Source of the DNA: Alphaproteobacteria bacterium
Lineage (GTDB): Bacteria; Pseudomonadota; Alphaproteobacteria; UBA828
Length of the DNA: 64,000 nt
Direction of reading: 5' to 3'
Assembly: GCA_963422645.2 (NCBI GenBank)
Contig: CAXXVO010000012.1
Coordinates: 235,873-299,872 of the forward strand
The position numbers were made by a program, and so were the translations under genes. Within the stretch, counting starts at the first letter, position 1. Every line of letters starts with the position of its first letter. Below, piece after piece: positions 8,611-39,467 of the stretch. Under the pieces are notes generated by a model that was not told the DNA's origin, made no database searches, and saw only the letters and a list, made by a program, of their open reading frames with translations.

Positions 8611-8611
8611 C

Positions 8612-12095: not shown

Positions 12096-12104
12096 TGGCT
12101 GTCG

Positions 12105-12152
12105 ATGTTCGTCCTGGATACAAATGTAGCATGTTCTTTCCTACTGGCCTAA
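12105..12152 (+). pseudogene. 5' stub of a VapC/FitB PIN toxin, interrupted after MFVLDTNV
   Basis: ATG TTC GTC CTG GAT ACA AAT GTA lies 9 bp after the antitoxin, then unrelated AT-rich sequence and a stop. Confidence 0.75.
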
Positions 12153-12192
12153 CCTACCGTATTCAAATAGCTTTTCTTTTTGCCCAACTGGC

Positions 12193-12212
12193 CCGTAAGC
12201 AATTCGGAAGCG
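12193..12212 (+). repeat. Putative integrase arm-type binding motif, copy 1
   Basis: CCGTAAGCAATTCGGAAGCG; matches the reverse complement of 17085-17104 at 19/20 and of 38205-38224 at 17/20. Confidence 0.7.
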
Positions 12213-12513
12213 GATTGGGGTGAAAGCCCGCGCGTTTCGGCGCGGCGCTGTCGACGGAAACCGCCTACCACTCCGTTGACCATCGGACCATCGTAACCGC
12301 TCGTCGGCCATCCGCTCGTGCGCTGTCCCGTTCGGCGAACCATCGGTGCGACGCAGACTCCATTGCGGTGCCGCGTTTCGGGATCGTAAACACCGGCCGA
12401 GCGCGTGGCCGGCGTACGGACATGCCGGTGATGTCGGCACGGGGGCCTGTTGCCACCTGCATTGCTGAGCGCACCGCACTTTCACTCCCGGCCGTCGGGT
12501 GCGTGGGCTGGCC

Positions 12514-13215
12514 TTACACCCGTCTGACGGTCCAGAGTACCTTGCCGACGATGTGCACGTCTTCGGCAAGGCAGGTGTAGTCGGCGTAGTCCGGGTTGGC
12601 TGATTTCAGCCGCAGCTCGGGCGCGCCGCCGGCGTCGTTCACATGCTCGACGCGCTTGACCACGAGCCCGGTTCCGTCGAAGAGCACGAACATCTCGCCG
12701 GTGGCGGGGACGCGCCGGGCGGTGTCGACGAGCAGCCGGTCGCCTTCGGAGAGCTCGGGCTCCATCGATTCGCCGCGCACCCGCAGCACGCGGATGGCGC
12801 CGGGGTTTGCGCCCCCCTCGTAGCGGATCATCCCCTCGGGGAGGAACCAGCGCGCGCGCTCGGCGACGAACTCGTCGGCAAGCGCGCCGGGTCCCGCGGA
12901 CGCCTCGACATCCACCTCCGGGACGGCGGCGAGCGGCACCGGTCCGGGATCCATCTCCTGTCGGCGCCGCTTCTTCGCTGCCGCCCTCTTGCGCCGGGGC
13001 GGGCGCTCGGCGTGGTGCAGATCTCCGGCCTTGCAGCCAAGCAGGCCGGCGAGCTTTTCCGCGTCCTGGTGCGAGATCACCTTGGGGGTGCCGCGCTCGA
13101 GGAAGCCGTGCAGGTAGGAGACGTTGCGGCCGATGGCGAGCGACACCTCGCGCATGTTCATGCCGCGCCTCCAGAGCAGGTCGCGGATGTTCTGTCGTAC
13201 CGGGTCGCGTTCCAT
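12514..13215 (-). CDS. CI/LexA-like repressor (HTH plus S24 peptidase)
   Basis: N-terminal HTH (REVSLAIGRNVSYLH), VRGESMEP Ser motif, VVKRV Lys, IVGKVLW. Confidence 0.88.
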   Translation of the reverse strand: MERDPVRQNIRDLLWRRGMNMREVSLAIGRNVSYLHGFLERGTPKVISHQDAEKLAGLLGCKAGDLHHAERPPRRKRAAAKKRRRQEMDPGPVPLAAVPEVDVEASAGPGALADEFVAERARWFLPEGMIRYEGGANPGAIRVLRVRGESMEPELSEGDRLLVDTARRVPATGEMFVLFDGTGLVVKRVEHVNDAGGAPELRLKSANPDYADYTCLAEDVHIVGKVLWTVRRV

Positions 13216-13280
13216 CGCGTTGCCTCGCTGGGTTGTCGCCGGTTGACGGCGGATGGCATAGCGTATTCACTAACTAACAC

Positions 13281-13297
13281 GATTGTCAACGACAATC
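13281..13297. promoter_or_regulatory. Palindromic operator candidate between divergent repressor and cro-like gene
   Basis: Perfect GATTGTC-AAC-GACAATC inverted repeat. Confidence 0.55.
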
Positions 13298-13319
13298 TGC
13301 CTGCGTATCTTCCGCCGCC

Positions 13320-14243
13320 ATGAACGCACTCACCACACATTTCCGCCACGCCGTGCGGGCGTATCTCGACCGCACCGGCACCGCACCCGCGCGGCTTGGG
13401 CTCGCGGAATCGCGCCAGTTCGGCGGCTGCTTCGTGCTCGGCATCCAGGTGATCTCCGCGCTCCGCGACCTCTACGGGCGCAACGGCGCGGAGACCATCT
13501 CGGGGCTCTGCGGCACCCGCGTGGTGCTCGCCGCCCCCGACCGCGACACCGCGCAATGGTCGGCCGACAGCCTCGGCCGCAGCGAGGTCGAGGAGGTGAC
13601 GGAGGGGTTCTCCTACGGCGCCAACACCATCCGCGACGGCGTCTCGCTCACGCCCAAGCGCGAGCTCCGCGCGCTCGCGCTCGCCTCCGAGATCATGCAG
13701 CTCGAGAGCCTCCACGGCTGGCTGCGCTTCCCCGGCCCGCTCCCGGTCGCCCCGATCCGGCTCGACTACGTGAAGCGCCCGAAGGCCGCCGAGCGGTTCG
13801 TGCCGCGGCGAGATGCCGGCCGGGACGAGACGGCGGCGGCAGCCAGGCCTCCCGGATCGACGGAGACCGAAGCGGATGCCGCACCGGAAGCGGCGGACCC
13901 TCGGGGCGAGCTCCCGAGCCTCCCGCCGCCCGACCCGGAACGGAAGCCGGCTCGCACCGGATCGGCCGGCGCGGAGGCCAAGCCAAGGGATGCACCGACG
14001 ACGGTCGGCGAGCTGGACCGGGCCACAGAAGCCCCCGCCGGCGCCGCGCGGCCAGCGGACGGTTCCGGCGAGGTGGCGGGGACGGGCGGTGCAAGCGGCG
14101 GTGACGCGCCGGGCGAGTCTTCGGCCCGCGAACGCGCCGCCGCGCCCGGTGGGCGGGACAGCACGGCTTCGGGTCCGTATACCGGGGATGACGATGACGC
14201 GGCCGGCGGCGCTGACGGCCGTCCGGCCTGCGAGTGGCTCTGA
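13320..14243 (+). pseudogene. Deletion fusion: Cro-like N-terminus joined to the C-terminal part of a TrwB/TraD type IV coupling protein
   Basis: MNALTTHFRHAVRAYLDRTGTAPARLGL followed by AESRQFGGCFVLGIQ...DLYG...SEIMQL; transmembrane segments and Walker motifs absent. Confidence 0.75.
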
Positions 14244-17071
14244 TGGTCGTCTCCATCGGCGCCGTCGCCTCGCCCGCGCAAGGTACGTCCTACTACGAGC
14301 GCGACGGCTACTACGCGAAGGACGACCCTGCCCACAGGGCCGCCAGCGCCTGGGCCGGAAAGGGCGCCGAGGGGCTGGGCCTCGAAGGCCCGGTCGACCC
14401 GGAGACGTTCCGCGCGGTACTCGAAGGCGAGGTGCCGGACGGATCGGGAAAGCGCCTGGGACGCCTCGACAGAGACGGCAACCGCATCCATCGCCCCGGC
14501 CGCGACCTGACGTTCAGCGCGCCGAAGTCCGTGTCTCTCGCCGCGCTGGTCGGCGGCGACGGCCGCGTAGTCGAGGCCCATGACCGGGCCGTCGCCCGCA
14601 CGCTTGCCTGGGTCGAGGGCAACGCCGCCGAGACCCGCATGCGGGATCCGGAGACGGGAAAGATGGTCCGGGCCGGCAACCAAAGAGTCGTGGCGGCAAC
14701 GTTCCGCCACGATACGTCCCGCAACCTCGATCCCCAGCTCCACACCCACGCCGTGCTCGCCAACATGGTGCAGGGCGGAGACGGGAAGTGGCGGACCATG
14801 GCCAACGAGTCGCTCTACCGCCAGCAGAAGCTGATCGGCATGGTCTACCGCAGCGAACTCGCCCGAGGCATTGCCGGGCTCGGCTACGGCATCGAGAAGA
14901 GCCATGCCGACGGGCGCTTCGAGATCGCGGGCGTGTCCCGCGAGGTGATCGAGGCCTTCTCCACCCGGCGCGCCGAGATCGAGGCCGCGGTCGCCGAGCG
15001 CGGCGCCGCGGGGACCGCCGCCGATGCGCGCCTCGCCGAGCGCGCGGCGCTGATGACGCGGGCCCACAAGCGCGATGTCGACAAGGCGGCGCTGCGCGAG
15101 AGCTGGCAGCGGCAGGCCGCCGGACTCGAGTTCGATGCGCGGGCCATCGTCGCCGAGGCCTTGCCGCGGGACGCCGGAAGGGAGCCGATCGTGGCGCGAG
15201 CGACGGACACCGCGCCGCGCGAGGCGGCGGCCCTTGCGGGCGCTGCCGGGAGGAAGGAGCCTGTGGGGCCGGACGGTGTTCCGAAGACCCCGGCGGCGGA
15301 GGCCATGGAATGGGCGGTCTCCCACTTGGCCGAGCGGGAGGCGGTGTTCTCCCGCGCCGACCTGCTGGCCGCCGCCCTCGCCTGGCGGCCCGGAGCGGTC
15401 TCCGTCGGAGAGGCGGAGATGACGGTGGGCACTCTCCGGAAGGCCGGCACGCTCCACGCCGCGCCCGCGCACGAAGCCGGCGACGGGATGACGACGGACA
15501 AGGCGCTCGCCGACGAGCGCGAGACGATCGGGCTGATGCGCGACGGTCAGGCCCGCGGGCGGCCGGTGATGCGAAGCTGGATGGTGAGCGCGCGCCTGCA
15601 CAGGGGACCGCTGACCCACGGGCAGCGGGAGGCGGTCAAGCTCATCCTCGGCGCGAAGGACCGGGTGGTGGGCGTCCAGGGCTATGCCGGCACCGGCAAG
15701 ACCGCCATGCTGAGGCGCGTCCAGGCGCTGGCGGCGAAGAGCGGCTACCGCATGATGGGGCTCGCCCCCTCGGCCTCGGCGGCGAGGACGCTCGGCGCCG
15801 AGGCCGGCATCGAAAGCGAGACGCTGCAGCTCTTCCTCGCGCGCAACGCCGGCGTCGCGCAAGCGCGCCTTTCGAAGAAGGGCGAGCGCGAACTGCGCAG
15901 CCGCTTCGCCAAGACCGTGCTGGTGGTGGACGAAGGCTCGCTCGCCTCCACCGTCCAGGCCCGCGACCTGCTGCGGATCGCGACCGTGCTGCGCATCCCA
16001 CGAGTGGTGCTAGTCGGGGACTCGAAGCAGCTCGACGCGGTCGATGCCGGGAAGCCGTTCGCGCAGCTTCAGGCCGCCGGCATGAAAACAGCCATCATGG
16101 ACGAGATCATGCGCCAGCGCGACCCCGACCTGAAGGCCGCGGTCGAGGCGAGCCTCGCGGGCGAAACGGCCAAGGCGTTCGGGAAGCTCGGCGCCAACGT
16201 CGCCGAGGTGAAGGCCGACAACATCGCGGGCGCGGTCGCCGCGCGCTGGCTCGCGCTCTCCCCGGAGATGCGCAACCGCACCGGGGTGATGGCCCCGAGC
16301 CACGCGCTCCGCCAAGCCATCAACGGCCATATCCGCGAGCGTCTCGCCCGTGAGGGCCGCATCCACGGCCCCGCACTCCAGAGCGAGCGGCTGGTCTCGA
16401 AGGGCTACACCAACGCGGAGAAGGCGCTCGCCGGGAACTATGCGGTGGGCGATGTCGTGGTCTTCCACCGACCGTACAAACGGATCGGCGTCGAGAAGGG
16501 CGACGAGCGCCGCGTCGCCGGCGTCGATCACGCGCGAAGGGAGGTCCTGCTCGGCGGGGGAGAGCACGGGACGGTGGGCTGGAAACCCGGCGAAATTGCC
16601 GGGAGCCGGGGCGGCAGCGAGGTCTACCGGGCCGAGGCGCTCGAGCTCCGCGCCGGCGACCGCGTCCGCTGGACCCGCAACGACACCGTGCTCGGGCTCG
16701 TCAACAGCCACACCGCCGAGGTGGTGGCGGTGACCGGCGGCCGGGTGTCCTTCCGGCTCGAGGACGGGCGCATGCTGAGCCTGAACGAAGGCGATCCGCA
16801 GATGCGCCATCTCGACCATGCCTGGGCCTCGACCGTACATGCGTTCCAGGGCCGTACCGTCGACAACGTGATCGCCGCCATGGAGGCAAACCATCCGCAC
16901 CTGACCAATCATAAAACGATGTATGATTCTCGCCTGTTCGACAACGGTGCGCAGAGGCGGTCAGAGACACGCGGGAGTATAATAGTCGATTGTTATAGCT
17001 ATATATTATCCCGTTCTCTCCTACAGCTACCCGCTTTCTGCCGCGCCACAGATGCGCTCCGATGCGCCTAG
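14243..17071 (+). pseudogene. MOB-F (TrwC/TraI) relaxase-helicase, interrupted at about 16910-16925
   Basis: YYERDGYY, DLTFSAPKSVS, HDTSRNLDPQLHTH, GYAGTGKT, TVHAFQGRT; similarity ends at HPHLTNHKTMY and motif VI (YV.ISR.R) is missing. Confidence 0.88.
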
Positions 17072-17104
17072 ATTGGAAGTCGGTCGCTTGCGAATTGCTT
17101 ACGG
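17051..17104 (+). repeat. Conserved integrase-proximal leader with arm-like motif, copy 2
   Basis: GATGCGCTCCGATGCGCCTAGATT...CGGTCGCTTGCGAATTGCTTACG aligns without gaps to 38171-38223. Confidence 0.75.
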
Positions 17105-17312
17105 ACCTGATACACGATCCCGCTCAGAATTCGTAATGCTTCTGTTCTCAGGTGATGGATGGTGATTTCACCGATTGAGTGTCCGCTTCCAGTCTCGTCG
17201 GAGAGGCCGCAGCCAGATGTCCCTCCTGGGCTCGGCCCGCTTCATGTGCGTGTCGTAGCGCCCGCGCAAAAGCCTCTGGTAACGCCGCCGGTGATTCGAT
17301 ATCGTCTCGCCC

Positions 17313-19751
17313 ATGGCGATGCGAGACGAGGATTTCGGGACGGCGCTGACACCGACCGAGGGGGACGAGGCGATCTGGTCGCCCCCCATGTCGGCGCCGG
17401 CGAGCGAGCCGCGCGACTGGCAATCTCTGTGCGAACAGGCGCAGGCGCGGGCGGAAGCAGCGGAAGCGCGTGCGGAAGAGTTGCGCTGGGCGGAAGTCGC
17501 CGCCCGCAGCGATGCGGGTGCGTGGAAGTCGCGGTTCAAGGCCTGCCGGCAGAGGCTGAGCGAGGCCGAGGAAGAGACCGGGGACCTCCGCCGCGCGGCC
17601 AAGGACGTGCCGGCCTTGCAGGCCGAAGTGGCGCACTTGCAGGAGTTGCTCTCCGAAGCCCGCAGCGTATCGAGCGAGTTCGGCACGATCGAAGCGCTGC
17701 GCGACGAGGTTGCTCAGTTGCAAGAGGCCCTGGCGTCGAAAGCCCGGAAGGACGCGACGGGGCCACTGTCGAGGGAGAATGCCCGGCTCCGCAAGACCCT
17801 GGAGCGGTCGCAGGGACAGAAGGACGAGGTCGCGGCGTTGCGCGGAGAGGTCTCGGCGCGGCGCAAGTCGGAGCGGGCCGCGCAGACGGCGCTGTCGAAG
17901 GAGAGCATCCGGCTGGGCAAGGCGCTGGAACGGACGCAGAAGCAGAAGGACACGGTCAAGGCGCTGCGCGAGGAAGTCGATTCCCTGACCCGGGAGACCC
18001 GTCGGCAGAACCGGGAGAACGGCCGGCTGCGCCGCGAGCTGGAGTGGTTGCAGGGCATCAGGGCGACGGCACGTGGGTTGTCCGACGAGGTCGAGCTGCT
18101 GCGCGCGGAACTGGCGGAATACCACGACCAGACGAACTTCATCGATTGGCAGGACAGGCGCATCGTCGACTTGCAAATTGCCCTGGATACGTCGGCCTTC
18201 AAGACCGAGCGGCTGGAGGCCGAGCTTGCCGAACGTCCCCTGCTGCCTGCGGCCTTGAAGAGATTGCGCCAGCAGGAGAAGACCATCGAGTCCCTGCGGG
18301 CCCGGATCGAGACGCTGGAAGAGGAGCTGGCCAAGCTGCGCTCGAGCCGGGCCGTCCTGTCGAAGGCGCTCCACGGCAGGAAGAGCGAGCAGCAGCAGAA
18401 GCCCGGTACGGGGCGCAAGCGCGGCCAGCAACGCGGCGCGCCCGGCCACGGCCGCACCCCGCGGCCCAAGCTCCAGGAGAAGAAGGAACGGCGCAACCCG
18501 CCGAAGGATGCGCGCATCTGTTCCTGTTGCGGCAAGCCCTATGTCGCCAACGGCGAACGCTCCACGAGCCTGATCGAGATCGAGGTCAAGGCCCACATCC
18601 GCAGGATCGTGCGGCCGCGCTACCGCCGGGGCTGCGAGTGTGCGTCCTCGCCCCTGGAAGCGATTGCGCCGCCGGTGCCGCGGCTGTTCCCCGGAACGCT
18701 CTTCGGAACCAGCTTCTGGGCACGGTTCCTGTTCGAACACTGTGGGTGTCTGCGCCCGCTGTGCCGGGTCGCCGCGTGGTACGGGGACCAGGGGCTGCCG
18801 GTCTCGCCGGGTACGCTGGCCAACAGCCTGAAGCGCTTCGTGCCGCTGTTCGACCCGCTCTACGAGGCGATCCTCGCGCACCAGAACACCGCGGCGTTGC
18901 GCCATGCCGACGAGACCGGCTGGCGGGTACAGGAGTTCCGCGACACCGGCCGTTCGAGCCGCGCCTGGCTGTGGGTCTCGGTCAGCAAGGATTCGGTCTA
19001 CTACATCATCGACCCCTCGCGCAGCGCCGAGGTCGCAAGGACCCTGTTCCGCGACACCGCCTGTATCGTCTTCCTGGTCTGCGACCGCTACAGCGCATAC
19101 AAAACGCTGGCGCGCGAACTCGCCGGCAAGGTGATCCTGTGCTGGTGCTGGGCACATCAGCGACGCGACTTCGTCGACTGCGCGACCGGGCAGGAGGCGC
19201 TGACCGAATGGTGCCAGGAATGGGTCGAGCGGATCGCGCTCGTCTACCACCTGAACGACGAACGGCTGAAGCATTACGACCCCGCTCTCGAACGCCAGAC
19301 ACGGGCCTTCGACGCGGCGCAGCGCAAGCTCGGAAGGGCGGTCAAGCGCCTGTTCGCGGACGCCGAGGCGGAACTGGCCGGCCTGCCGGACAAGGACCGT
19401 CGGGCAAAGCCCTTGCGCTCGCTGCTCAACCACCGCGAAGGGTTGTGCGTCTTCGTCGACAATCCCCAGGTTCCGATGGACAACAACGCCGGGGAGCGGG
19501 CGATCCGCGGGCCGGCCATCGGGCGCCGATTGAGCTTCGGTTCCAACAGCGAGGACGGCGCGAAGTTCACCGCGACCATGTACTCCGTCATCGGCACGCT
19601 CTCGATGAACGGCATCGACGTGCCGCGCTGGCTGGAGGCATGGTTGAAGGCCTGCGCGGAGAATGGCGGCAAACCGCCCGACGACCTGTCCCCATGGCTG
19701 CCGTGGACGATGAGCGAGGCGCGCAGGCGCAAGTTCACGGCGCAGGAATGA
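17313..19751 (+). CDS. IS66 family transposase (TnpC-like) with long N-terminal coiled coil
   Basis: LHGRKSE, CSCCG Zn finger, HADETGW, VCDRYSAY, CWAHQRRDF, DNNAGERAIR. Confidence 0.9.
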   Translation: MAMRDEDFGTALTPTEGDEAIWSPPMSAPASEPRDWQSLCEQAQARAEAAEARAEELRWAEVAARSDAGAWKSRFKACRQRLSEAEEETGDLRRAAKDVPALQAEVAHLQELLSEARSVSSEFGTIEALRDEVAQLQEALASKARKDATGPLSRENARLRKTLERSQGQKDEVAALRGEVSARRKSERAAQTALSKESIRLGKALERTQKQKDTVKALREEVDSLTRETRRQNRENGRLRRELEWLQGIRATARGLSDEVELLRAELAEYHDQTNFIDWQDRRIVDLQIALDTSAFKTERLEAELAERPLLPAALKRLRQQEKTIESLRARIETLEEELAKLRSSRAVLSKALHGRKSEQQQKPGTGRKRGQQRGAPGHGRTPRPKLQEKKERRNPPKDARICSCCGKPYVANGERSTSLIEIEVKAHIRRIVRPRYRRGCECASSPLEAIAPPVPRLFPGTLFGTSFWARFLFEHCGCLRPLCRVAAWYGDQGLPVSPGTLANSLKRFVPLFDPLYEAILAHQNTAALRHADETGWRVQEFRDTGRSSRAWLWVSVSKDSVYYIIDPSRSAEVARTLFRDTACIVFLVCDRYSAYKTLARELAGKVILCWCWAHQRRDFVDCATGQEALTEWCQEWVERIALVYHLNDERLKHYDPALERQTRAFDAAQRKLGRAVKRLFADAEAELAGLPDKDRRAKPLRSLLNHREGLCVFVDNPQVPMDNNAGERAIRGPAIGRRLSFGSNSEDGAKFTATMYSVIGTLSMNGIDVPRWLEAWLKACAENGGKPPDDLSPWLPWTMSEARRRKFTAQE

Positions 19752-20629
19752 CCGGCGCCATCGAGTGCCGGTACTACGGGCGCGACTTCACCACCGACGA
19801 GATGGCGCTGCTGCGCGCCCTGATCGCCGCCGATCCGCAGCCGACCCGCGCCGCCCTGTCCAGAGAGTTCTGCCGGCGTATCGGCTGGCTCAAGCCCGAC
19901 GGCGGCCTCAAGGACATGATGGCCAAGGTGACCATGCTCGCCATGCACCGCGACGGCGTGATCGTTCTGCCGCCGCCGAGGGGACGGCAGGGCCGGCCCA
20001 AGCCCTTCGTCTTCGGGCCTGACACCGAGCCGCCGCTGTTCCCGGCGCCGACGACGCTGGACGAGGTGCGCCCCCTCGACTTCCGCACCGTCATGCGCAA
20101 CACGCGGGAAGGCAGGCTCTGGAACGAGTTCGTCGCCCGCTACCACTACCTCGGATACAAGACCCTGGTCGGCGCCCAGATGCGCTACGCCGTGCACGAC
20201 CGAAACGGCTGGCCCGTCGCCATGCTCGGCTTCTCCACCGCCGCCTGGAAGCTCGCCCCGCGCGACAGCTTCATCGGATGGACGCCCGAGCTGCGCGAGA
20301 AGAACCTGCCGCTGGTGGTGGACAACCCGCGCTTCCTGATCCTGCCCTGGGTCGAGATCCCGAACCTGGGCTCGCACATCCTCGCCATCGTGCGCCGCCG
20401 CCTGCCCGAGGACTGGACCGCGCGCTACAACGTCACACCGGTGCTCATCGAGACCTTCGTCGAGACCCCGCGCTACACCGGCGCCGTCTACCGCGCCTCG
20501 GGCTGGACCCGCGTCGGGACCACCCAGGGCCGCGGGCGCTACGACACGCACATGAAGCGGGCCGAGCCCAGGAAGGACATCTGGCTGCGGCCTCTCCGAC
20601 GAGACTGGAAGCGGACACTCAATCGGTGA
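19748..20629 (+). CDS. DUF4338 (Druantia DruA-like) domain protein, IS passenger
   Basis: RYYGRDF, RYHYLGY..LVGAQMRY, AAWKLAPRD..IGW, NPRFLILPWV, ETFVE, GAVYRASGW, T.GRGR. Confidence 0.8.
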   Translation: MTGAIECRYYGRDFTTDEMALLRALIAADPQPTRAALSREFCRRIGWLKPDGGLKDMMAKVTMLAMHRDGVIVLPPPRGRQGRPKPFVFGPDTEPPLFPAPTTLDEVRPLDFRTVMRNTREGRLWNEFVARYHYLGYKTLVGAQMRYAVHDRNGWPVAMLGFSTAAWKLAPRDSFIGWTPELREKNLPLVVDNPRFLILPWVEIPNLGSHILAIVRRRLPEDWTARYNVTPVLIETFVETPRYTGAVYRASGWTRVGTTQGRGRYDTHMKRAEPRKDIWLRPLRRDWKRTLNR

Positions 20630-20691
20630 AATCACCATCCATCACCTGAGAACGGAAGCATTACCAGAATTCCAGGATTCGGATCTGACCG

Positions 20692-21885: not shown

Positions 21886-21917
21886 GGCCCGGCAACGGCG
21901 ATGGGAACAGAGAGACG

Positions 21918-23117: not shown

Positions 23118-23376
23118 GTTCCATCGACCACATGGCCCCTCCTCGGAGTTGGTCTCCGGGTCACTGTTCTCCGGAGCATCCGGGGTCTTTCCCGCGCCGT
23201 GAACATGCGCTGGATCGAGGAACCGAGTCGGCGTGACGAGCGAATCCCCGCAAGCCTCATGCGGCCTCGCCCGCCGCGACAGCCGAAGAATGCGCACCGC
23301 CTGGAATTTTGCCAATTTTGTTGTATTTTCCGGGTGGGGTCTGGCCAAGCCGATCAGAACGCGAGCGCGATGGATA

Positions 23377-23589
23377 ATGACTGACACCGATGTCATGACC
23401 GTGCGCGAGGTGGCCGAGTACCTCAAGGTCAAGGACCGTACGATCTACCGGCTGGTCGCCAACGGAGAGATACCGGGCTTCAAGGTTGGCGGCTCCTGGC
23501 GGTTCAGGAAAAGCGAGATCGACCTGTGGACCGAGGCGCACGCGGTCGGGCCGGACGACCCGGGTAGGCGGGTGGAGAGCAGCGTATGA
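23377..23589 (+). CDS. Excisionase-like HTH DNA-binding protein (probable operon regulator)
   Basis: MTVREVAEYLKV..RTIYRL...GEIPGFKVGGSWRF; stop overlaps the next start. Confidence 0.85.
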   Translation: MTDTDVMTVREVAEYLKVKDRTIYRLVANGEIPGFKVGGSWRFRKSEIDLWTEAHAVGPDDPGRRVESSV

Positions 23590-27107: not shown

Positions 27108-27121
27108 TCCGGGAGGGCACC

Positions 27122-29507: not shown

Positions 29508-29514
29508 GCGGACG

Positions 29515-32448: not shown

Positions 32449-32450
32449 TC

Positions 32451-35400
32451 ATGCTCGGCGATCGCACATGGAGGCTCAAATACACGCCCGATGACGGCGA
32501 TCTGGTCAAGCTGTTCTACGTCCCCGCTCTGGAAGACGCCGAGCGTTACGATCGGCTGACCGGATATTTCAATGCCCGCGCTCTGGCCCTGGCGGCGCGT
32601 GGCATCGAAGGGCTGGTGCGCAACGGCGGGCGCATGAGGCTTGTCGTCGGCTGCACCCTGGAGCCGCCCGAAATCGAGGCCATCGAGAAGGGCGAGCGGC
32701 TTCGCGACCTCGTCGAACGGCGTCTGGCAAGCCTTCCCCTGGCCCCGCCGGACCCGGCTTCCGCCGACGCGCTGGAGCTGCTCGCCTGGATGGTGGCGCG
32801 GGGCTTTCTCGACGTGAAGGTCGCCGTTCCCTGCGATGCCGATGGCAAGCCGATTCCGGCCGACGGCATCTTTCACGAGAAGGCCGGCATCGTCGAAGAC
32901 CGCGGCGGCGACCGGATCGCCTGGACCGGCAGCCTCAACGAGACCGCCGCCGGCTGGCGGCACAACTGGGAGAGCATCAGCGTCTATACGAGCTGGGGGT
33001 CGGAACCACGCCGGGTTGCCGACGAGGAGGCCAACTTCGCGCGCATCTGGGCCGGCAAGGCGCAGCGCGTGATCGTGCTCGACGTGCCCGACGCCGCGCG
33101 GCGGGACCTGATGCGCTTCATGCCGGCAAGCGACAAACCTGCCCGCCTCAAGGAGAGGACCGGGAAAGAGCCTTCGAAGGCGCCACCGGAAAAGCCGACG
33201 TCGGAAACGACGGACCCCGAGGCGCCGGTCGCATCCCGGACAGGCGATTTGCGACGCCGCGTCTGGTCGTTTATCCGGCAGGCGCCTTCACTGCCCAGCG
33301 GCGGCGAGCGGATCGGCGAAGCGACCGCGGCGGTCACGCCGTGGCCGCACCAGGTGCGCGCCTTCGACCGTCTCTACCGCGATTGGCCGCCCAAGCTTCT
33401 GATCGCCGATGAGGTCGGCCTCGGCAAGACCGTCCAGGCCGGCATGCTGCTGCGTCAGGCATGGCTCGCCGGGCGCGCCGAACGGATCCTGATCCTGGCG
33501 CCCAAGGCCGTTCTCAAGCAGTGGCAGATCGAGCTGCGCGAGAAGTTCAACCTCAACTGGCCGATCTACGATGGCGGCAAGCTGACCTGGTATCCGTCTC
33601 CCGCGTGGCGCGGGCGAAACGAACGCCAGGTGGGCCGCGACGACTGGCACCGCGAACCCGCGGTGATTGCATCCAGCCATCTGATACGTCGGCGAGACCG
33701 GGCGGCGGCGCTTCTGGAAGATGCCGAACCGTGGGATCTGGTGGTGCTCGACGAAGCTCACCACGCCCGGCGGCGCGGCGCGGGAAGCCAGCAGGAAGGC
33801 GGGCCGAACGCGCTTCTCCGCCTGATGCAGGGGTTGAAGGGCCGCACCCGGGGGTTGGTCCTGTTGACCGCGACGCCGATGCAGGTCCATCCCGTCGAGG
33901 TCTGGGACTTGCTGAACCTGCTCGGTCTGCCGCCGGAGTGGACTTCCAGGGCGTTTCTCGATTTCTTCGAGGATATCGAGCAGCCGAACCCGTCGGTGGA
34001 GGCGCTGGATCGCATGGCTTCGCTGTTCCGGTCGGCCGAACGGACCTACGGCGAAGTCGAGACGGCGTTCGCGCAACGCCTCTCCGGCCTGTCGCGTCTG
34101 AAGGCCAATAAGATACTCCGCGCGCTGCGCGACGGCGCCAGCATCCCGCGCCGCCAACTGGAAACCGCGGAGCGCCGGGCAGCGGTCGGGATCGTGCGGG
34201 CGAACACGCCGCTGCGGCGGCTGGTCTCGCGGCACACACGCGAACTCCTGCGCCGGTATTTCAAGGCGGGAATGCTGGCCACGCCGATCGCCGACCGCAG
34301 TGTGGAGGATCGCTTTCTGGAGATGACGGCGGAAGAGCGGGCGCTCTATGACGCGGTCGAGGATTACATCGCCAGCACCTACAACCAGGCGAGCGCGAAG
34401 GAACGTACGGCGGTCGGGTTCGTGATGACCATCTACCGCCGTCGGCTCGCCAGCAGCTTCAGCGCCCTGCGCAAGACTCTGCAAAACCGTCTCGATGCCC
34501 TTGCCGCCGGCGGGCCGCCGCCATCGGCGGGCCTCGCCGAGGACGTGCCGGACGATGAGGCCGTGGACGACATCCTCGACGCCGACGACGCGGAGAGACT
34601 CGAACGCGAGGCCCTCGGCGGCGAAGAAGAGGCCGACATCGAAGACCTTCTTGCCAGTATCGGCCGGCTGCCACCGGACAGCAAGCTCGAAAGTCTCAGG
34701 AGCGCCCTTCGGGAGTTGCGCGAGGAAGGATACGGCCAGGCGATGGTCTTCACGCAGTACACCGACACCCTGGACTTTCTGCGTGAAGAGCTTCTGAAAG
34801 ACTCCGGTTCAAGGGTGATGTGCTTCTCGGGACGCGGCGGCGAAATCCCCGCCGCGGACGGCTCATGGCGCAGGATCGGGCGCGACGACGCCAGACGCCG
34901 GTTCCGCGACCGCGAGGCGGATGTCCTGCTCTGCACCGATGCCGCCGCCGAGGGTCTGAACTTCCAGTTCTGCGGCGCGCTGGTCAACTACGACATGCCT
35001 TGGAACCCCATGCGGGTCGAACAGCGTATCGGGCGTATCGACCGGCTGGGCCAGCAGAACCGGACCATCCGCATCGTCAACCTGCACTACGAGGGCACGG
35101 TCGAAACCGACGTTTACCGGGCGCTCAGGACCCGCATCGGCCTGTTCGAGTCCGTGGTCGGCCGGTTGCAGCCGATTCTGGCCCAATTGCCCCGGACGAT
35201 TTCGCAGACCGTGCTGTCCGGCGAAGGTCGGGATGCCCGGGAACGCGCCAATCTCGTGGATGCGATCGAACGACAGACACGGGACCGCGAGGGCCGGGGT
35301 TTCGATATCGACGAGGTGACGGAGAGCGATCTCCCCATACCGGCGCCGGCGCCGGCGCCCATCACCATGGAAGATCTCGACCGGATCGTCGGGATGCCCG

Positions 35401-35639
35401 ACGTGATGCCGCCGGGAACCGATGTCCAGCCCATGGGACATCGGGAGTACGGCCTGCTGGCGCCCGGCATGACCGAGCGTCTGCGGGTGACCACCGATCC
35501 GGCGTATTTCGAGGAGCACGCCGAAAGCGTGGAACTGTGGTCGCCCGGCAATCCCCTGTTCATTGCGCCCGAGTTCTTGGACAGCGGCGAGTTGGAGCCC
35601 TCGCAGTGGACACTGAAGGATATCCTCGACGGCGGCTGA
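32451..35639 (+). CDS. PLD-family nuclease fused to SNF2 helicase
   Basis: FHEKAG...TGSLNET PLD motif; ADEVGLGKT, DEAHH, TATP, EQRIGRIDRLGQ. Confidence 0.9.
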   Translation: MLGDRTWRLKYTPDDGDLVKLFYVPALEDAERYDRLTGYFNARALALAARGIEGLVRNGGRMRLVVGCTLEPPEIEAIEKGERLRDLVERRLASLPLAPPDPASADALELLAWMVARGFLDVKVAVPCDADGKPIPADGIFHEKAGIVEDRGGDRIAWTGSLNETAAGWRHNWESISVYTSWGSEPRRVADEEANFARIWAGKAQRVIVLDVPDAARRDLMRFMPASDKPARLKERTGKEPSKAPPEKPTSETTDPEAPVASRTGDLRRRVWSFIRQAPSLPSGGERIGEATAAVTPWPHQVRAFDRLYRDWPPKLLIADEVGLGKTVQAGMLLRQAWLAGRAERILILAPKAVLKQWQIELREKFNLNWPIYDGGKLTWYPSPAWRGRNERQVGRDDWHREPAVIASSHLIRRRDRAAALLEDAEPWDLVVLDEAHHARRRGAGSQQEGGPNALLRLMQGLKGRTRGLVLLTATPMQVHPVEVWDLLNLLGLPPEWTSRAFLDFFEDIEQPNPSVEALDRMASLFRSAERTYGEVETAFAQRLSGLSRLKANKILRALRDGASIPRRQLETAERRAAVGIVRANTPLRRLVSRHTRELLRRYFKAGMLATPIADRSVEDRFLEMTAEERALYDAVEDYIASTYNQASAKERTAVGFVMTIYRRRLASSFSALRKTLQNRLDALAAGGPPPSAGLAEDVPDDEAVDDILDADDAERLEREALGGEEEADIEDLLASIGRLPPDSKLESLRSALRELREEGYGQAMVFTQYTDTLDFLREELLKDSGSRVMCFSGRGGEIPAADGSWRRIGRDDARRRFRDREADVLLCTDAAAEGLNFQFCGALVNYDMPWNPMRVEQRIGRIDRLGQQNRTIRIVNLHYEGTVETDVYRALRTRIGLFESVVGRLQPILAQLPRTISQTVLSGEGRDARERANLVDAIERQTRDREGRGFDIDEVTESDLPIPAPAPAPITMEDLDRIVGMPDVMPPGTDVQPMGHREYGLLAPGMTERLRVTTDPAYFEEHAESVELWSPGNPLFIAPEFLDSGELEPSQWTLKDILDGG

Positions 35640-35802
35640 TGGGCCGTCGCTGTAGGGCTGCGACACGCGAGGCTACAGTGCGAACCGATGCGATTAGAAG
35701 CCTCCGGCATCACTGAAGCGCGGAAGATCCTGGCGACGCCCCAATTGAGGTCGAGCAAATTCCCGCCAACATTTGAACCTTCAAAGCGCCATCACTATCT
35801 CA

Positions 35803-36759
35803 CTATTCGTTGAAATCCGGTTCGTAATCTGGTATCTCACTACGGGCTTCCTCTAGCTCATCTTCGGTGTAGAGTTGAAAATACTCCGCTGCTGTGAATA
35901 CACGTCTTACACTAAACTCTTCCCCCAACCCGCTCGCTGTTAGTTTCAGAAGCCCTGAAATATGCAACCCACAAGCTATGCACTCAAAGGATGAGGGACG
36001 CATTGCTTGCCTCTGCACAATCTCGTCACCTTTTACCTCTGTACTAACTGCTCCTCTAGGGGATCCTTGTAAGAGAGCTCGGGATTCGCAAGCCGGACAT
36101 TCTACGCGATGACCGGAATGTCTTGTCGCCCAATTCGTCGACTGCAAGGTCGCTCTTTCTTGATCTTCCATATTTTTTTCTTGCCAAATTTTTCTGTGAG
36201 CAAGAATATCCCGTTCTACTGCGGACGCGACCTCCTTTTCGAATTCGTCAATAATCTCTCGTACCTGTGCCGTATCGGAAACGAATTCTTCAAGTTCTCT
36301 ATCCATGGACTTCAAAAGAACATCGCACGCCTTATAAAAATTTAGTAGCCATATAGATATTGATATGTTCGCGAATGCCAAATCACCAGAATGCAATTCG
36401 GCATTTCGTCTTTCGGCGTGCTGGCTGCAGAAGCCGACAATTTCCTCACTGAAATTTGGAATCAACTCTTTTAGACGCGACAACACGTCTTTGGTTGATA
36501 GGGATCTCGGAAAAAATTCAGTTGATGTTTGTTCTTTTCCCAAAGCGTATGCCAAATTTCGCCAATTTCGATTGTCCGCCAGAAGGACTGGAGATACATG
36601 AGCTAGCGCGGCCCGAGCCAAGAGTTCGAGCGACAATGCAGACCAGAGACCAAATTGCCAGTCGCCCTCGGTGTGTGCTTCCATTCGCTCAACATAGAGT
36701 TGCGCCTTTCGAAAAAGCGCTTCCTGCGACCAGCGATGAATCGCTATTTTCGTATTCAC
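35803..36759 (-). CDS. Hypothetical protein with HEPN-like RxxxxH motif and C-terminal Zn ribbon
   Basis: SLELLARA helix, RRNAELH, CPAC...CIAC; visibly AT-richer than its surroundings. Confidence 0.6.
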   Translation of the reverse strand: MNTKIAIHRWSQEALFRKAQLYVERMEAHTEGDWQFGLWSALSLELLARAALAHVSPVLLADNRNWRNLAYALGKEQTSTEFFPRSLSTKDVLSRLKELIPNFSEEIVGFCSQHAERRNAELHSGDLAFANISISIWLLNFYKACDVLLKSMDRELEEFVSDTAQVREIIDEFEKEVASAVERDILAHRKIWQEKNMEDQERATLQSTNWATRHSGHRVECPACESRALLQGSPRGAVSTEVKGDEIVQRQAMRPSSFECIACGLHISGLLKLTASGLGEEFSVRRVFTAAEYFQLYTEDELEEARSEIPDYEPDFNE

Positions 36760-37457
36760 GCAATTATCTCCGACAAATACACCCGTTCAATCCGTCGGTC
36801 AGCATCGTTCAAACTAACTTCACTACGTCCATGGAGTATGCGCCAGTTGTCTACCAGCAGTGTATCCCCAGGCTCGATCAGCGCCAAGCACTTCGATTGA
36901 TCCCATGATTTTCTACGCATGGTTTCTGAAACTCGGTTCGCAGGCTCGTTCATCGGTACCAGGAATAGAGGATCCCATCGAAATCCCGAAACGCCTCCTT
37001 GCCGAAACATGAGTGGAAGCAAGGTAAGGGAAGCATCTCCGCTGGCACGCCTAGGTCGCACCAAGGCTCGCCGTAGCGTCAAAATGTCAAGCACAGACGT
37101 AAGGGCTGAGGCCACCAAGAGGCGTGTACTCACGGACCGCGAGCCGTTTCGGCACCGCAGCATAAAGTAGCGGGGTGGCTGCGCCCAATGCGCGAGGTCA
37201 GTGTGAAGAGGAAACTCAGCAAGGCCGTATTCGCCGCTATAGCGATTTGCGAAAGCGTTGGCCGTCGTTTGCGGTTGCAATGTCTGCACAACAGGGATGT
37301 CACCCGGTAGCAATGTAGGGATGTCCACTACCGTGCCGACTGATTGTCCGATCATGGCTGTTGTTTCTGCTGGTCTCCATCTGCGAAGGAGGACGTAGCC
37401 ACTTCGGTGCAAGCTGTCCGCATGGTGCCGTGCGAGCGGCGGAGCTACTACGCCCAT
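36756..37457 (-). CDS. TauD/TfdA-like Fe(II)/2OG dioxygenase
   Basis: FPLHTD, LLVDNWRILHGR, RRIERVY; 4-bp overlap with the downstream gene. Confidence 0.8.
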   Translation of the reverse strand: MGVVAPPLARHHADSLHRSGYVLLRRWRPAETTAMIGQSVGTVVDIPTLLPGDIPVVQTLQPQTTANAFANRYSGEYGLAEFPLHTDLAHWAQPPRYFMLRCRNGSRSVSTRLLVASALTSVLDILTLRRALVRPRRASGDASLTLLPLMFRQGGVSGFRWDPLFLVPMNEPANRVSETMRRKSWDQSKCLALIEPGDTLLVDNWRILHGRSEVSLNDADRRIERVYLSEIIA

Positions 37458-37603
37458 ATGAGTTGACCGTCGATCATGGTTGAAATTGGGGGTCGCGGCT
37501 ACGGTGCTGAATCAGAGATTGCATGCTGAGCCTCGGTCCCATCAAGACAACGGCCTTACTGCCGCGGCACCCCACATCTGATCGGTGCTGTTGTTGGCAA
37601 CGA

Positions 37604-38044
37604 TCATTGTTGCAGTTCGGCGGTCCATGGATCGACGGTCTCGACGCCTGTGTTGCGGAACTCGCCGGTGTTCCGTGTCACGACGGCAAGCCCGCGCGTG
37701 GCGGCCGCTGCGGCGAGGAAGGCATCCGGCACATGGTCGTCAAGCGCCTCGCCGCGCCGGCGCTTGTTCTCTATGATCCGCGCGCATGCGCGGGCGTCGG
37801 CCAGTGTCCAATCGACGATGCGGTCCTCGAACAACTCGTCGAGAAGATCGTGGAACCGGTCGGCGAGACCGCGCCGGCGCTTACCCGGAGCCAGACGGCC
37901 GATGCCGTCGAGTATCTCCCAGACGGTGATGGACGCGAGGCCGAGGCCGTCATCGGCGATCGAGTCGAGATAGGCGGCGACCCGCGGTTCGGGACGCGGC
38001 CGCATCATCTCGGAGACGACGTTGGTGTCTAGAAGAAAACTCAT
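37604..38044 (-). CDS. vapC: VapC/FitB PIN-domain toxin without an adjacent antitoxin
   Basis: LLDTNVVSE, SITVWEI, DAFLAA, VVTRN, DPW. Confidence 0.88.
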   Translation of the reverse strand: MSFLLDTNVVSEMMRPRPEPRVAAYLDSIADDGLGLASITVWEILDGIGRLAPGKRRRGLADRFHDLLDELFEDRIVDWTLADARACARIIENKRRRGEALDDHVPDAFLAAAAATRGLAVVTRNTGEFRNTGVETVDPWTAELQQ

Positions 38045-38170
38045 TCTATCCGACACCCTGACCCACTTGCGCCGGAATGCATGGACTTGCGCTCATCTGA
38101 TATAACTCATTGTAAATAATCTATATTTCCGATTTCCATGGCGCAGCTTGCCCCTTGCATTCCCGCCTCC

Positions 38171-38224
38171 GATGCGCTTCAATGCGCCCCGATTTCGAGC
38201 CGGTCGCTTTCGGATTGCTTACGC
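38171..38224 (+). repeat. Conserved integrase-proximal leader with arm-like motif, copy 3
   Basis: GATGCGCTTCAATGCGCCCCGATT...CGGTCGCTTTCGGATTGCTTACG, homologous to 17051-17103. Confidence 0.75.
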
Positions 38225-38293
38225 GAAAATACCCGCATCTCGCAGCGATCCGATCCGCGCTCCGGCGACGGCCCCTGTCGCAGGAACCGGGAC

Positions 38294-39463
38294 ATGCCCG
38301 AACGCCAGTACCGAACCCTCTCCAAGCGCATCGTGGACCGCCTCACCGTCGACGGCAAGGACGCGGTGTTTTGGGACCGGGAGCTGCCGGGCTTCGGCGT
38401 CAGGGTCTACCCCTCGGGGCGCAAGGTGTATGTCGTCCAGACCCGCTCGAAGGGCAAGTCCAGACGCGTCACCGTGGGCCGCCACGGCGACATCGTGCCC
38501 GACCAGGCCCGCAAGGAGGCCGCCAAGGTCATCGCGCGCATCAAGGCCGGGCTGCCTCCCGTCGAGACGGAGCCCGAGGCCCCGCCGACGATAGCGGACC
38601 TCGCCGGGCGCTACCGGCGCGAGTATGTCGCGATGCACTGCAAGCCCAATACCGTGAAGCACTACGGTCTGATGCTGAGCAAGCACATCGTGCCGCGCTT
38701 GGGCGAACTGCGGGTATCGGACGTCGAGCGCAAGAACATCCTCGAGTTCCAGTTCCAGCTGAGCGACATGCCGACGGTGGCGAACCGGTGCGTGGACATC
38801 CTGGTGAAGATGTTCAACTTGGCCGAGCAGTGGGAGATGCGCCCGCCCGGCCGGAACCCGTGCAGGTCCGTGCGCCGCTACAAGATCGATCCGCACAAGG
38901 AGCGGTTCCTGACGCCCGCGGAGCTCGCACGGCTCGGCCGAACCCTCGACATCGCGCCCGCGAAGCGCCTCGCCTCGCGGCACGCGGCGGCGGCGATCCG
39001 GCTGCTGGTGCTGACCGGATGCCGGCGCAACGAGATCATGGGGCTTGCCTGGGACGACCTGGACTTCGAGGCGGGCGAGATGCGGCTTCGCGACAGCAAG
39101 ACCGGAGGGCGAATCGTCCCGATGCCGCCGGCAGCATCGGAGGTCCTGGCGGCGCTGCCGCGCGTCGCCGGCAATCCGTGGGTATTCCCCGGCCGGAAGC
39201 AGGGCACTCGTCAGGTCAACATCAACGACTCCTGGAATCGCATTCGCAGGCACGCCGGTCTCGACGATGTCCGGCTTCACGATCTTCGCCATACGTTCGC
39301 CTCGCGGGCGCTCGCGATCGGCGAAGGCCTGCCGATGATCGGGAAGCTGCTCGGCCACAACAAGATCGAGACGACGGCGCGCTACGCCCATCTCGCGCGG
39401 GAGTCGGTCAGGGCGTCGACGGCCAAGGTCGCCGAGAGTATCGGCGCGGACATCCTGGGGTAG
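38294..39463 (+). CDS. Tyrosine integrase with arm-binding domain (pair 2, first)
   Basis: WDRELPGFGVRV; LTGCRRNE, HDLRHTFAS, LLGH, TTARYAHL. Confidence 0.93.
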   Translation: MPERQYRTLSKRIVDRLTVDGKDAVFWDRELPGFGVRVYPSGRKVYVVQTRSKGKSRRVTVGRHGDIVPDQARKEAAKVIARIKAGLPPVETEPEAPPTIADLAGRYRREYVAMHCKPNTVKHYGLMLSKHIVPRLGELRVSDVERKNILEFQFQLSDMPTVANRCVDILVKMFNLAEQWEMRPPGRNPCRSVRRYKIDPHKERFLTPAELARLGRTLDIAPAKRLASRHAAAAIRLLVLTGCRRNEIMGLAWDDLDFEAGEMRLRDSKTGGRIVPMPPAASEVLAALPRVAGNPWVFPGRKQGTRQVNINDSWNRIRRHAGLDDVRLHDLRHTFASRALAIGEGLPMIGKLLGHNKIETTARYAHLARESVRASTAKVAESIGADILG

Positions 39464-39467
39464 CGCG

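Follow-up and report, generated by a model that had tools for sequence, protein, structure and literature searches.

Islands with tandem P4-type integrases and the LDTNV codons of PIN toxin genes as their probable integration target

How does a mobile island come to end within the first codons of a toxin gene, and to do so at more than one such gene in a genome? The question is raised by a 64,000-nucleotide stretch of an alphaproteobacterial genome (positions 235,873 to 299,872 of contig CAXXVO010000012.1, assembly GCA_963422645.2). The whole stretch is called the window below and corresponds to G000:C13:235873-299872, where G000 is the source genome and C13 the contig, whose end is also the right edge of the window, with nothing assembled further right. 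The window has a GC content of about 67%, with low-GC patches, and holds pieces of an element of the integrative and conjugative type (ICE) with the integrase pair int3/int4, together with E2, a second two-integrase island with the pair int1/int2 and Hma cargo. Three junctions are at issue, J1 at the stub of a fitA-vapC operon, J3 at a relaxase gene and J4 at a second vapC (vapC2); the integrase-proximal end of an element is called the I end and the integrase-distal (far) end the F end. An earlier note, made from the letters of the stretch, had seen here a family of elements that target conserved protein motifs. With genes called by codon-position GC, Pfam and PADLOC, and with related genomes for comparison, the most probable answer is that islands with tandem P4-type integrases integrate at the Leu-Asp-Thr-Asn-Val (LDTNV) codons of PIN toxins, a reading that is given a probability of about 0.85.

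Junctions at PIN toxin genes

At J1 the core chromosome flank follows that of congener G005 with 94.7-95.1% nucleotide synteny as far as window 12127. The vapC directly behind the FitA-like antitoxin reads ATG TTC GTC CTG GAT ACA AAT GTA from 12105 and then leaves the PIN frame for ACSFLLA-stop, which bears out the break after MFVLDTNV that the earlier note had reported. The tail that the element encodes, A C/Y S F L/I L A/S stop, recurs at C16:154924 and at two ends in the near relative G029. Homology to the target (a paralogous fitA-vapC in C22) extends up to 12127 and homology to the element (C16:154924) begins at 12115, an overlap of 13 bp. The operon is uninterrupted at this locus in four congeners (G005, G011, G006 and G001), and its right flank in G005 is C22:1-1345 of G000, a contig that starts 24 bp past the position of the vapC stop codon in the orthologous G005 locus. 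The G005 empty site reads ATGTTCGTCCTGGACACCAATGTCGTCTCC, from which the window diverges from the Asp wobble on; attL of the window and attB of G005 differ at three wobble positions, those of D, T and V, in a flank that is otherwise ~95% identical.

The closed chromosome of G029 holds a complete 87.5-kb element of the same type with both of its ends. On the F side, FitA and a stub VFLLDTNV adjoin the F end and, ~87 kb away on the I side, the I end is followed by MSFLLDTNVVSELL. The empty site for this element is the intact C22 fitA-vapC operon of G000 itself, and 13 bp (TAGACACAAATGT) are common to its attL and attR homologies. With genes for TrwC (989 amino acids), a TrwB-type coupling protein (800 amino acids), TraG_N, TraH, TraC, TrbI, SSB, HTH_17 and an S24 repressor, the G029 element is, by its gene content, a complete F-type ICE (MPF-F and MOB-F).

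At J4 the true start of vapC2 is the ATG at 38044, not that at 38056, and the gene reads MSFLLDTNVVSE. From 38044 the minus strand runs ATG AGT TTT CTT CTA GAC ACC AAC GTC GTC TCC into a full PIN domain, so that an antitoxin-less vapC beginning MSFLLDTNV about 175 bp from a shared motif, as first described, is indeed present once its start is corrected, with the Leu codon at 175 bp. A paralogous vapC (C3, 83%) aligns up to 38029 and a second copy of the ICE I end (C13:28399-28684, 96%) aligns from 38015. J1 (CTG GAT ACA AAT GTA) and J4 (CTA GAC ACC AAC GTC) disagree at each of the five LDTNV wobble positions, as had been pointed out, and the orthologue of the fitA-locus vapC shares just 39% identity with the vapC at J4. 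The conclusion that a single insertion did not leave both J1 and J4 as its ends therefore stands, but the "two separate insertions" of the earlier note proved too simple: the far end seen at J1 and the integrase end seen at J4 are the two ends of one ICE type in G029, and an integrase-mediated inversion between two PIN sites is no less likely than a pure nest. As judged from these DNA comparisons, an ICE of the 87-kb type with an F-type type IV secretion system (T4SS) is shown integrated in the chromosomal fitA-vapC operon, with the integrase end of the same ICE type adjoining a different, accessory vapC at J4. A variant contig also spans J4, with three differences at 37856-37868.

A third insertion is divided between two contigs of G000. 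The second I-end copy (C13:28684) adjoins a PIN gene of a different type (MSFLLDTNVVVAAFRS, antitoxin downstream) and the F end at C16:154924 adjoins the stub VRLVLDTNV. The flanks of these two ends lie ~90 bp apart in G009, G011, G008 and G025 and ~45-50 bp apart in G001 and G005, which identifies them as a single insertion of >100 kb split over two contigs. In G009, G011, G008 and G025 most of the PIN gene at this locus is lost, with the 3' end and a downstream antitoxin-like gene kept, which amounts to decay of the toxin at a site that no element occupies. In the whole G000 assembly, J1 and C16:154924 were the only places with the F-end signature. Three insertions thus have an uninterrupted attB or continuous flanks as comparator and share a 13-bp core, as expected of site-specific integrative elements.

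The position of the exchange can be narrowed further. Aligned junctions of close relatives agree on the element side as far as ...CTT CT and differ from the next base on, and together with the wobble differences from G005 this places the exchange within CTN GAY, the Leu-Asp codons. I ends that are 96-99% identical adjoin unrelated PIN bodies (PIN vs PIN_3, with the antitoxin upstream or downstream), and identity collapses in the D-T-N-V codons.

The tabulation of homologous integrase pairs that had been proposed as a check was carried out with the window IntA as query, yielding 79 loci from contigs of one genome per species. Scanning the three minus-strand frames just upstream of the integrase end gave 142 open reading frames (ORFs) at 53 loci, and a Pfam PIN or PIN_3 ORF was present at 24 of these 53, starting at the junction residue in 23; profile positions 1-3 of the junction PIN ORFs begin at the L/I-D-T-N-V residues. 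The association follows integrase relatedness, with PIN at 23 of 34 loci at >=67% IntA identity vs 1 of 19 below. For background, the 5.9-Mb G000 has 20 PF01850 matches and 17 occurrences of the 11-mer GAYACNAAYGT, at least 9 of them at PIN starts or stubs, and five core-bearing PIN genes are unoccupied. With three comparators and 23 of 34 close loci, the proposal that the LDTNV codons of PIN genes are the target is well supported. At L027 an intact fitA-vapC stands beside an integrase that does not have the usual arm. A flank at L052 that had been taken for a TrwC N-terminus was not confirmed by Pfam and was dropped.

Element ends, integrases and the proposed recombination

The three junctions share a 20-bp motif, found with <=3 mismatches at 12193 (+, 0 mismatches), 17085 (-, 1) and 38205 (-, 3), against 0.01 matches expected in the window and with three or more copies in 0 of 100 shuffles. 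Nine matches occur in the whole genome at <=4 mismatches, five at element ends and a sixth 43 bp from another integrase pair. The motif is therefore tied to element ends, as had been supposed, and is not an unlinked repeat. It consists of two direct CGNAAGC heptamers (CG(T/G/A)AAGC) 11 bp apart, about one helical turn; they are CGTAAGC and CGGAAGC at the F end (12193-12212) and CGTAAGC and CGAAAGC at the J4 I end (38205-38224). Each arm has one copy, in the same orientation in both arms of the attP that we infer, and the double heptamer would fit two arm domains bound side by side. The distance from junction to motif is 175 bp at J4 (from the Leu codon) and 177 bp at J3, and 66 bp separate 12127 from the motif start at J1. 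Degree of motif similarity was considered as a way of pairing J1 with J3 and set aside, as in G029 a J1-type F end pairs with a J4-type I end despite three motif mismatches. The earlier observation that the motifs are followed by integrase pairs held for both minus-strand copies, with the corrections that an IS66-family insertion sequence (IS) intervenes after 17085 and that the fourth integrase is cut by IS21.

Beyond the motif, the ends are conserved as wholes. The window F end is 78% identical to that at C16:154924-155078 and near-identical to that of the complete G029 ICE, and 37978-40498, including the I-end arm, is 97.5% identical to the G029 ICE. The AT-rich block and promoter-like box of the J3 and J4 arms align gap-free. 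In the ICE I end, 65 nt upstream of the ATG that the element supplies, an outward promoter-like site (TGGAAA-18-TACAAT) points into the toxin gene (2 sites in the promoter scan vs 0.0 expected), and the arm supplies GGATAG-N4-ATG to the toxin body. An inward box, TTGCAT-N17-TTCAAT, faces intA and, as read from the sequence, thereby places the motif in the integrase leader.

All four window integrases match PF13356 (Arm-DNA-bind_3) and PF14659, which identifies them as P4-type. The boxes TGCR, RDSKTG, HDLRH, LGH and TTARYAH are present in int1, int2, int3 and both G029 integrases; int4 ends after HDLRHSFASRALA, without H-III and Tyr. For a quick maximum-likelihood tree, sources with two stop-free matches of >=330 amino acids less than 400 bp apart were kept and others left out. 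In the resulting 35 pairs the first- and second-position integrases form two groups with parallel subtrees; the A/B split needs one label change, and 0 of 500 shuffles are as low. A PIN-targeting clade of 25 pairs has 100% support in both halves. IntA and IntB may thus be an obligate pair, possibly each acting on one half of an asymmetric core. Integrase modules 72-84% identical in amino acids occur in metagenome-assembled genomes titled Alpha- and Gammaproteobacteria, Binatia, Thermodesulfobacteriota and Acidobacteriota, and genomes of the genus have 8-23 integrase-pair matches each, among the matches listed.

These observations suggest a mechanism in which the attachment site would be the DNA for the first beta-strand of PIN toxins, L-D-T-N-V, which holds the catalytic Asp. 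The attP would mimic a PIN gene start, with a mini-ORF M-S-F-L-L-D-T-N-V-A-C/Y-S-F-L/I-L-stop between motif-bearing arms, and IntA and IntB would act together in the manner of XerC/XerD, exchanging strands within the Leu-Asp codons. After integration the antitoxin and an 8-codon toxin stub would stay at the integrase-distal end, and the toxin body at the integrase-proximal end would gain the ribosome-binding site, start codon, three or four codons and outward promoter-like site of the element. Protein function and GC-rich codon usage dictate the ~13-bp core, so that it recurs in many PIN genes that are unrelated to each other, whether chromosomal or carried by other mobile elements, and in different phyla, and such a recurrent core would allow multi-site integration, nesting, pseudo-sites and integrase-driven rearrangements.

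Several points weigh against this account and are to be set beside it. Among the 34 closest loci, 11 have no Pfam PIN ORF. The junction at L008 falls at the N-terminus of an ABC ATPase, whose start reads MSCL and, past the junction, LHANG; L026 lies at the N-terminus of a short-chain dehydrogenase (SDR), MDSKV; L022 is intergenic (GCGTTGGTGCC); L006 is in a plus-strand AAA-ATPase-like gene; and L028 is in a response-regulator protein starting MYLIDTNG. No Pfam PIN ORF was found at L002, L009, L021 and L068, and L005 and L011 have LDTNV without a detectable domain. These junctions fit pseudo-attB sites with look-alike DNA at gene starts or between genes, and they show a specificity for DNA, not for PIN as such. 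The branch that separates the A and B integrases is weak in the quick tree (SH-aLRT, the Shimodaira-Hasegawa-like approximate likelihood ratio test, 36), and int1/int2 of E2 fall outside the 25-pair PIN clade, so the native target assigned to E2 is a putative one. The outward site at the I end is promoter-like, by its consensus match. Over 28001-48000, assembled read contigs showed neither an excision product or circle nor any read of an empty site; their joints have sides of 20-36 letters and are not credible.

History of the window and rival explanations

The two ICE pieces of the window are complementary. Piece A (12129-16907) corresponds to 64239-89100 of the G029 element and runs from the far end over the S24 repressor and a 20-kb deletion to the coupling-protein C-terminus and to the relaxase as far as its break; piece B (38030-64000) corresponds to 1610-48858 and comprises the I end, intA, intB::IS21, a 29-kb deletion and the cargo. 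The two do not overlap and run in the same direction. The ~20-kb internal deletion covers G029 element coordinates 67715-87823 (T4SS genes and coupling-protein N-terminus); what remains of the coupling protein matches TrwB_AAD_bind profile positions 265-387 only, in a fusion ORF whose homology to the C16 and G029 ICEs starts at 13398. The deletion junction has a 5-base homology overlap (13398-13402), which suggests a deletion via microhomology, and it creates an in-frame fusion, MNALTTHFRHAVRAYLDRTGTAPARL-GLAESRQFGG.... That the break at 13398 might be an att site of a second integrase family, 38% identical, was considered and rejected, since C16 reads through this point and comparison with the G029 ICE shows the break to be a deletion within the element. 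At the other piece, homology to the G029 ICE stops at 40498, where IS21 cuts IntB (int4), and next to IS21 a ~29-kb deletion takes G029 element coordinate 4092 to 33465. The IS21 end has ~90 matches across the 5.9-Mb genome, and this extreme IS load may explain the deletions adjoining ICE genes. The window copies no longer qualify as ICEs, the T4SS and coupling-protein N-terminus being deleted and the relaxase truncated, and both pieces were presumably immobilised by the 20-kb deletion, intB::IS21 and the 29-kb deletion.

At J3 the homology of the relaxase to the intact C16 copy (96-98%, also given as 98.2% identity) is lost exactly at 16907/16908, where the intact copy continues ...HLTTQKSFYVEISRARDR, a continuation also given as HLTTQKSFYVEISRAR; the UvrD_C_2 match of the window relaxase is partial (1-37 of 52). 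A relaxase break at the same motif distance, placed at about 16915 by the earlier note, is thus real, 177 bp from the motif, and its position is corrected. The IS66 element with its 8-bp target duplication (CAGAATTC) and terminal inverted repeats lies between the 17085 motif and integrase 1, which makes it a later simple insertion. IS66-family copies lie ~10-30 bp upstream of the intA start in three pairs (17133-20664, C6:339311 and C8:422137), with all flanks different, and IS66 may have a preference for integrase leaders, silencing the integrases. No close relatives of int1/int2 were found in the genus, where nucleotide identity reaches at most 71%. Nor does the J4-type I end occur in any of the 20 congeners searched, in which the integrase coding part alone matches, at ~70%. 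In the E2 cargo, PADLOC detects HmaC (8e-99), HmaB (2e-70) and HmaA (1e-56, or PLD_Helicase at 2e-69), and the three together define a predicted Hma defence system. With this, and with the DruE-like and AbiE genes of the ICE, the proposal of a family that combines a tandem integrase pair with defence cargo was upheld.

The best fit of the window, to which somewhat less than an even chance is given, would combine a single ICE, an island nested in it and a single inversion brought about by integrase. The ICE would have entered fitA-vapC, E2 would then have entered the ICE relaxase, with the vapBC2 module carried by E2, and finally recombination of the ICE attR with the inverted LDTNV site of vapC2 would have inverted everything between. 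Such an inversion yields J1, J3 and J4 as observed. It also puts four features into the unassembled stretch before C22:1, namely the relaxase C-terminus, the far end of E2, the second antitoxin and the vapC body of the fitA locus, and all four are indeed missing from the assembly, an absence that also keeps this history a conjecture. The partner junctions predicted by the earlier note were thus not found: the whole G000 assembly has no antitoxin for vapC2, no second relaxase C-terminus and no fitA-locus vapC body, for which the best match is a 63% paralogue. The sequence at the missing vapC body is not repetitive, and the end of C13 is unique sequence that overlaps no other contig. A point against the account is read depth, since the contig over the I end, intA and intB (38021-40211) has 1.9-2.7x the word depth, in three runs, of the contig over E2 cargo (starting at 35218, 36264 or 36546 and ending at 37850), which could reflect extra identical copies or co-resident strains.

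Extra copies are what the closest rival needs, a pure three-level nest with ICE copy A in fitA-vapC, E2 in the relaxase of A and a complete ICE copy B in the vapC of E2, all distal junctions then lying past the contig end. The arrangement of J1, J3 and J4 is consistent with it, and vapC2 and its neighbours are accessory, 35640-37592 having no match in any of 20 congeners searched. The depth leans slightly towards the nest but is confounded, as the excess can stem from the 96-98% copy elsewhere in C13 or from related strains. The nest further requires a third intA/intB pair of this type where the assembly has two, and it leaves the exact complementarity of pieces A and B on the ICE map to coincidence between independent copies. 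On balance it appears rather unlikely.

Doubtful, too, is a role for one integrase alone, with the other serving as directionality factor, acting on a second att site or being redundant. Single-integrase relatives (57-59% identity) do appear site-specific, and the ICE has an HTH_17 (excisionase-like) gene. Both paralogues, however, keep all catalytic residues and the arm-binding domain, pairing is kept through 35 pairs whose phylogenies run in parallel, and the arm motif consists of two heptamers. The single-integrase relatives (L038, L040, L042, L043, L045 and L058) have plus-strand N-terminal stubs ending (I/V)D(I/V)GGT with an element-coded stop, directly 3' of a Hydantoinase_B gene at L038, and their target is probably the start of a hydantoinase A or ASKHA-type gene. 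Other clades use tRNA 3' ends (...GGGGCAGGATTCGAACCTGCG; L134 and L148) or end at ...(L/F)(I/F)AT followed by QNISC from the element (L133, L147 and L050). This suggests that sister clades shifted their target from tRNA genes to the codons of short N-terminal motifs (DxGGT in a hydantoinase-type gene and LFAT in a mobile-element gene). A second tandem-integrase family, 33-40% identical, is present at C16:174345, C5:426079, C8:164243, C3:168545 and G005:C2:1373018, with a conserved end of its own, ...GCGCACCTGCGGTGCTAAC...; its G005 copy begins 1.3 kb past the fitA-vapC locus.

Relaxases as a second class of bona fide target, with a family that hunts genes of mobile elements, had been part of the original proposal, and this part did not survive. 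J3 lies at a natural element boundary, with 177 vs 175 bp to the motif, and other clades are found in conjugation genes, the 38%-identical pair at C16:174345 interrupting the coupling-protein gene of the C16 ICE after ...SPRDFDTMA and L050/L147 breaking a gene at ...GILFAT. The relaxase is, on the other side, a single instance: no other examined locus breaks a relaxase at this helicase motif (0 of 53 scanned loci, and none by Pfam at any junction). The gene is joined in the orientation opposite to PIN targets, its antisense strand shares ~7/12 bases with the PIN core, and the E2 end still reads ...CGT TTT ATG AT up to the junction, as a PIN-type gene start (M-I/L-D-T-N) would need. J3 looks like a single pseudo-attB insertion in antisense orientation, and a relaxase target class is improbable.

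Toxin-antitoxin (TA) modules are common ICE cargo, and this ICE has an AbiE module. The idea that the PIN genes are cargo or addiction modules, with LDTNV reflecting homology and no targeting, accords with 10.64898/2025.12.11.693706 and PMC3826726, where vapBC is cargo and tRNA genes are targets, but is very improbable here, given that the same PIN genes, antitoxins and flanks are uninterrupted and element-free in relatives, antitoxin-bearing stubs stand at the other element end, and unrelated PIN families stand beside near-identical ends.

The coordinates of the features are collected in the table below. In the core flank a GPP34 (Golgi phosphoprotein 3 family) homologue is encoded at 9240-9908 on the minus strand (PF05719, E = 1.7e-46). 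The ICE cargo is 95.5-97% identical to that of the G029 ICE over 43052-44451 and 44794-57367, and 87% over 57578-58437; within it, two overlapping ORFs (profile positions 2-513 and 527-974) make up a DpdE/DrmD-like SNF2 helicase (52202-55064), likely divided by a frameshift.

Table. Features of the window with coordinates, strand and the basis of their assignment
Feature	Coordinates	Strand	Basis
Core chromosome flank, including MFS transporter (10383-11708, - strand; Pfam MFS_1)	930-12104		synteny with G005
FitA-like ribbon-helix-helix antitoxin, intact at attL	11832-12095	+	PF22513, E = 8e-21
vapC stub, 15 codons: MFVLDTNV (target and core), then ACSFLLA-stop (element)	12105-12152	+	sequence
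attL core / crossover region, CTG GAT ACA AAT GT	12114-12128	+	13-bp homology overlap
Integrase-distal arm (F end) of ICE, arm motif 12193-12212	12129-12330	+	homology to other F ends
S24 (LexA/CI-type) repressor of ICE	12514-13215	-	PF00717; same gene adjoins F end in G029 ICE
Fusion ORF: 26 codons of regulator start and C-terminal third of coupling protein, joined at 13398	13320-14243	+	
TrwC (MOB_F) relaxase-helicase, cut after ~residue 891, before YV.ISRAR helicase motif	14234-16907	+	Pfam TrwC and AAA_30
I end of E2, arm motif 17085-17104; resumes 20665-20691 past IS	16908-17132	+	
IS66-family insertion sequence in E2 integrase leader	17133-20664	+	DDE_Tnp_IS66
E2 tandem integrases	IntA 20692-21885; IntB 21882-23117 (also given as 21918-23117)	+	Arm-DNA-bind_3 and Phage_integrase in both
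E2 cargo, Hma-type: HmaC ATPase, DUF7680, two uncharacterised proteins, MBL-fold, HmaB methylase, PLD-SNF2 helicase	23586-35639	+	
Accessory low-GC segment: uncharacterised ORF and TauD-like fragment	35640-37603	-	GC 47% at 36-37 kb
vapC2, PIN toxin body, no antitoxin; first 4-5 codons (MSFL-L) from ICE end	37604-38044	-	PF01850 (match in 37604-38056)
attR core and element-supplied start codon	38015-38044	-	aligned junctions
I end of ICE, arm motif 38205-38224	38045-38293	+	96% identical to C13:28399-28684
Outward promoter-like site in ICE I end	38138-38109	-	consensus match
ICE tandem integrases, IntA intact, IntB cut before LGH box and catalytic Tyr	IntA 38294-39463; IntB 39468-40498	+	
IS21 (istA 41416-42942, istB 40701-41429)	40499-43051	-	Pfam IstB_IS21, rve, Mu-transpos_C_2
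ICE cargo to contig end: SLOG, AbiEi/AbiEii, DruE-like helicase, split DpdE-like SNF2 helicase, Eco57I-type methylase, HTH-M78 regulator	43052-64000	+	Pfam, PADLOC

Known systems and the meaning of a protein-motif target

In a full-text search, with subscription journals and supplements outside it, no integrase described as targeting vapC or PIN codons and no tandem P4-type pair were found. The nearest relatives are the P4-type (DUF4102 / Arm-DNA-bind_3) tRNA integrases, which have the same arm-binding N-terminus, SAM-like domain and catalytic domain, with arm repeats that flank the core, and whose attP likewise carries a copy of the displaced gene end and so restores the target; some clades of the PIN-island family are themselves at tRNA 3' ends (L134 and L148). 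The PIN islands differ in their two paralogues in tandem, in a target at the 5' end of a protein-coding multigene family, and in having many sites per genome vs one tRNA gene. The ICEs of the SXT/R391 family integrate in the 5' end of prfC and supply a new N-terminus and promoter, so that the gene stays expressed. The PIN islands, too, enter a 5' coding end and supply an N-terminus and a promoter-like site; unlike SXT/R391, which has one Int with Xis and a unique housekeeping gene, they use a motif of unrelated paralogues and split toxin from antitoxin.

XerC and XerD form a heteromeric pair of tyrosine recombinases and, as in that pair, the two catalytically complete paralogues of the islands could each serve one half of an asymmetric core; IntA and IntB, in contrast, have adjacent, element-borne genes and arm-binding domains, and their heteromer is putative. 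Homing endonuclease genes, inteins and group II introns occupy the codons of conserved catalytic motifs. They share with the PIN islands a target that is held constant by protein function, available across species and hard for the host to mutate away, whereas the islands use conservative site-specific recombination of an 80-90-kb conjugative element, and the target gene is restored, not spliced. The clustering of tyrosine recombinase genes at one island end also recalls GInt, RIT, BIM and the strand-biased circularizing elements (intA/intB, PMC10214605). The recombinases of these elements are not known to be P4-type arm-binding pairs or to have a PIN-codon target.

Integrases are usually thought to choose one locus, such as a tRNA gene or the end of a housekeeping gene, and here the choice would be a protein-family motif. 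Such motif targeting would explain why integrase modules that are 72-84% identical are found across phyla, would account for the nesting and rearrangement of islands, and may help to explain the many integrase pairs per genome in this genus. TA loci as landing pads would be a new link to genome plasticity, and the pair would represent a natural two-protein recombinase with a short, predictable and widespread target. It is tentatively proposed, at odds well short of even, that a heteromeric IntA/IntB evolved to read the DNA for the catalytic-Asp strand of PIN, kept constant by selection on protein function ("domain homing"), with landing sites in most bacteria, several per genome, rival mobile elements included. 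If this is true, the toxin would come under an element promoter with its antitoxin ~90 kb away, so that TA balance may be coupled to the state of the element, and the many inverted PIN sites would be substrates for integrase-driven chromosomal inversions. If the retargeting of sister clades is also true, the targeting of protein-motif codons would be a general and evolvable principle.

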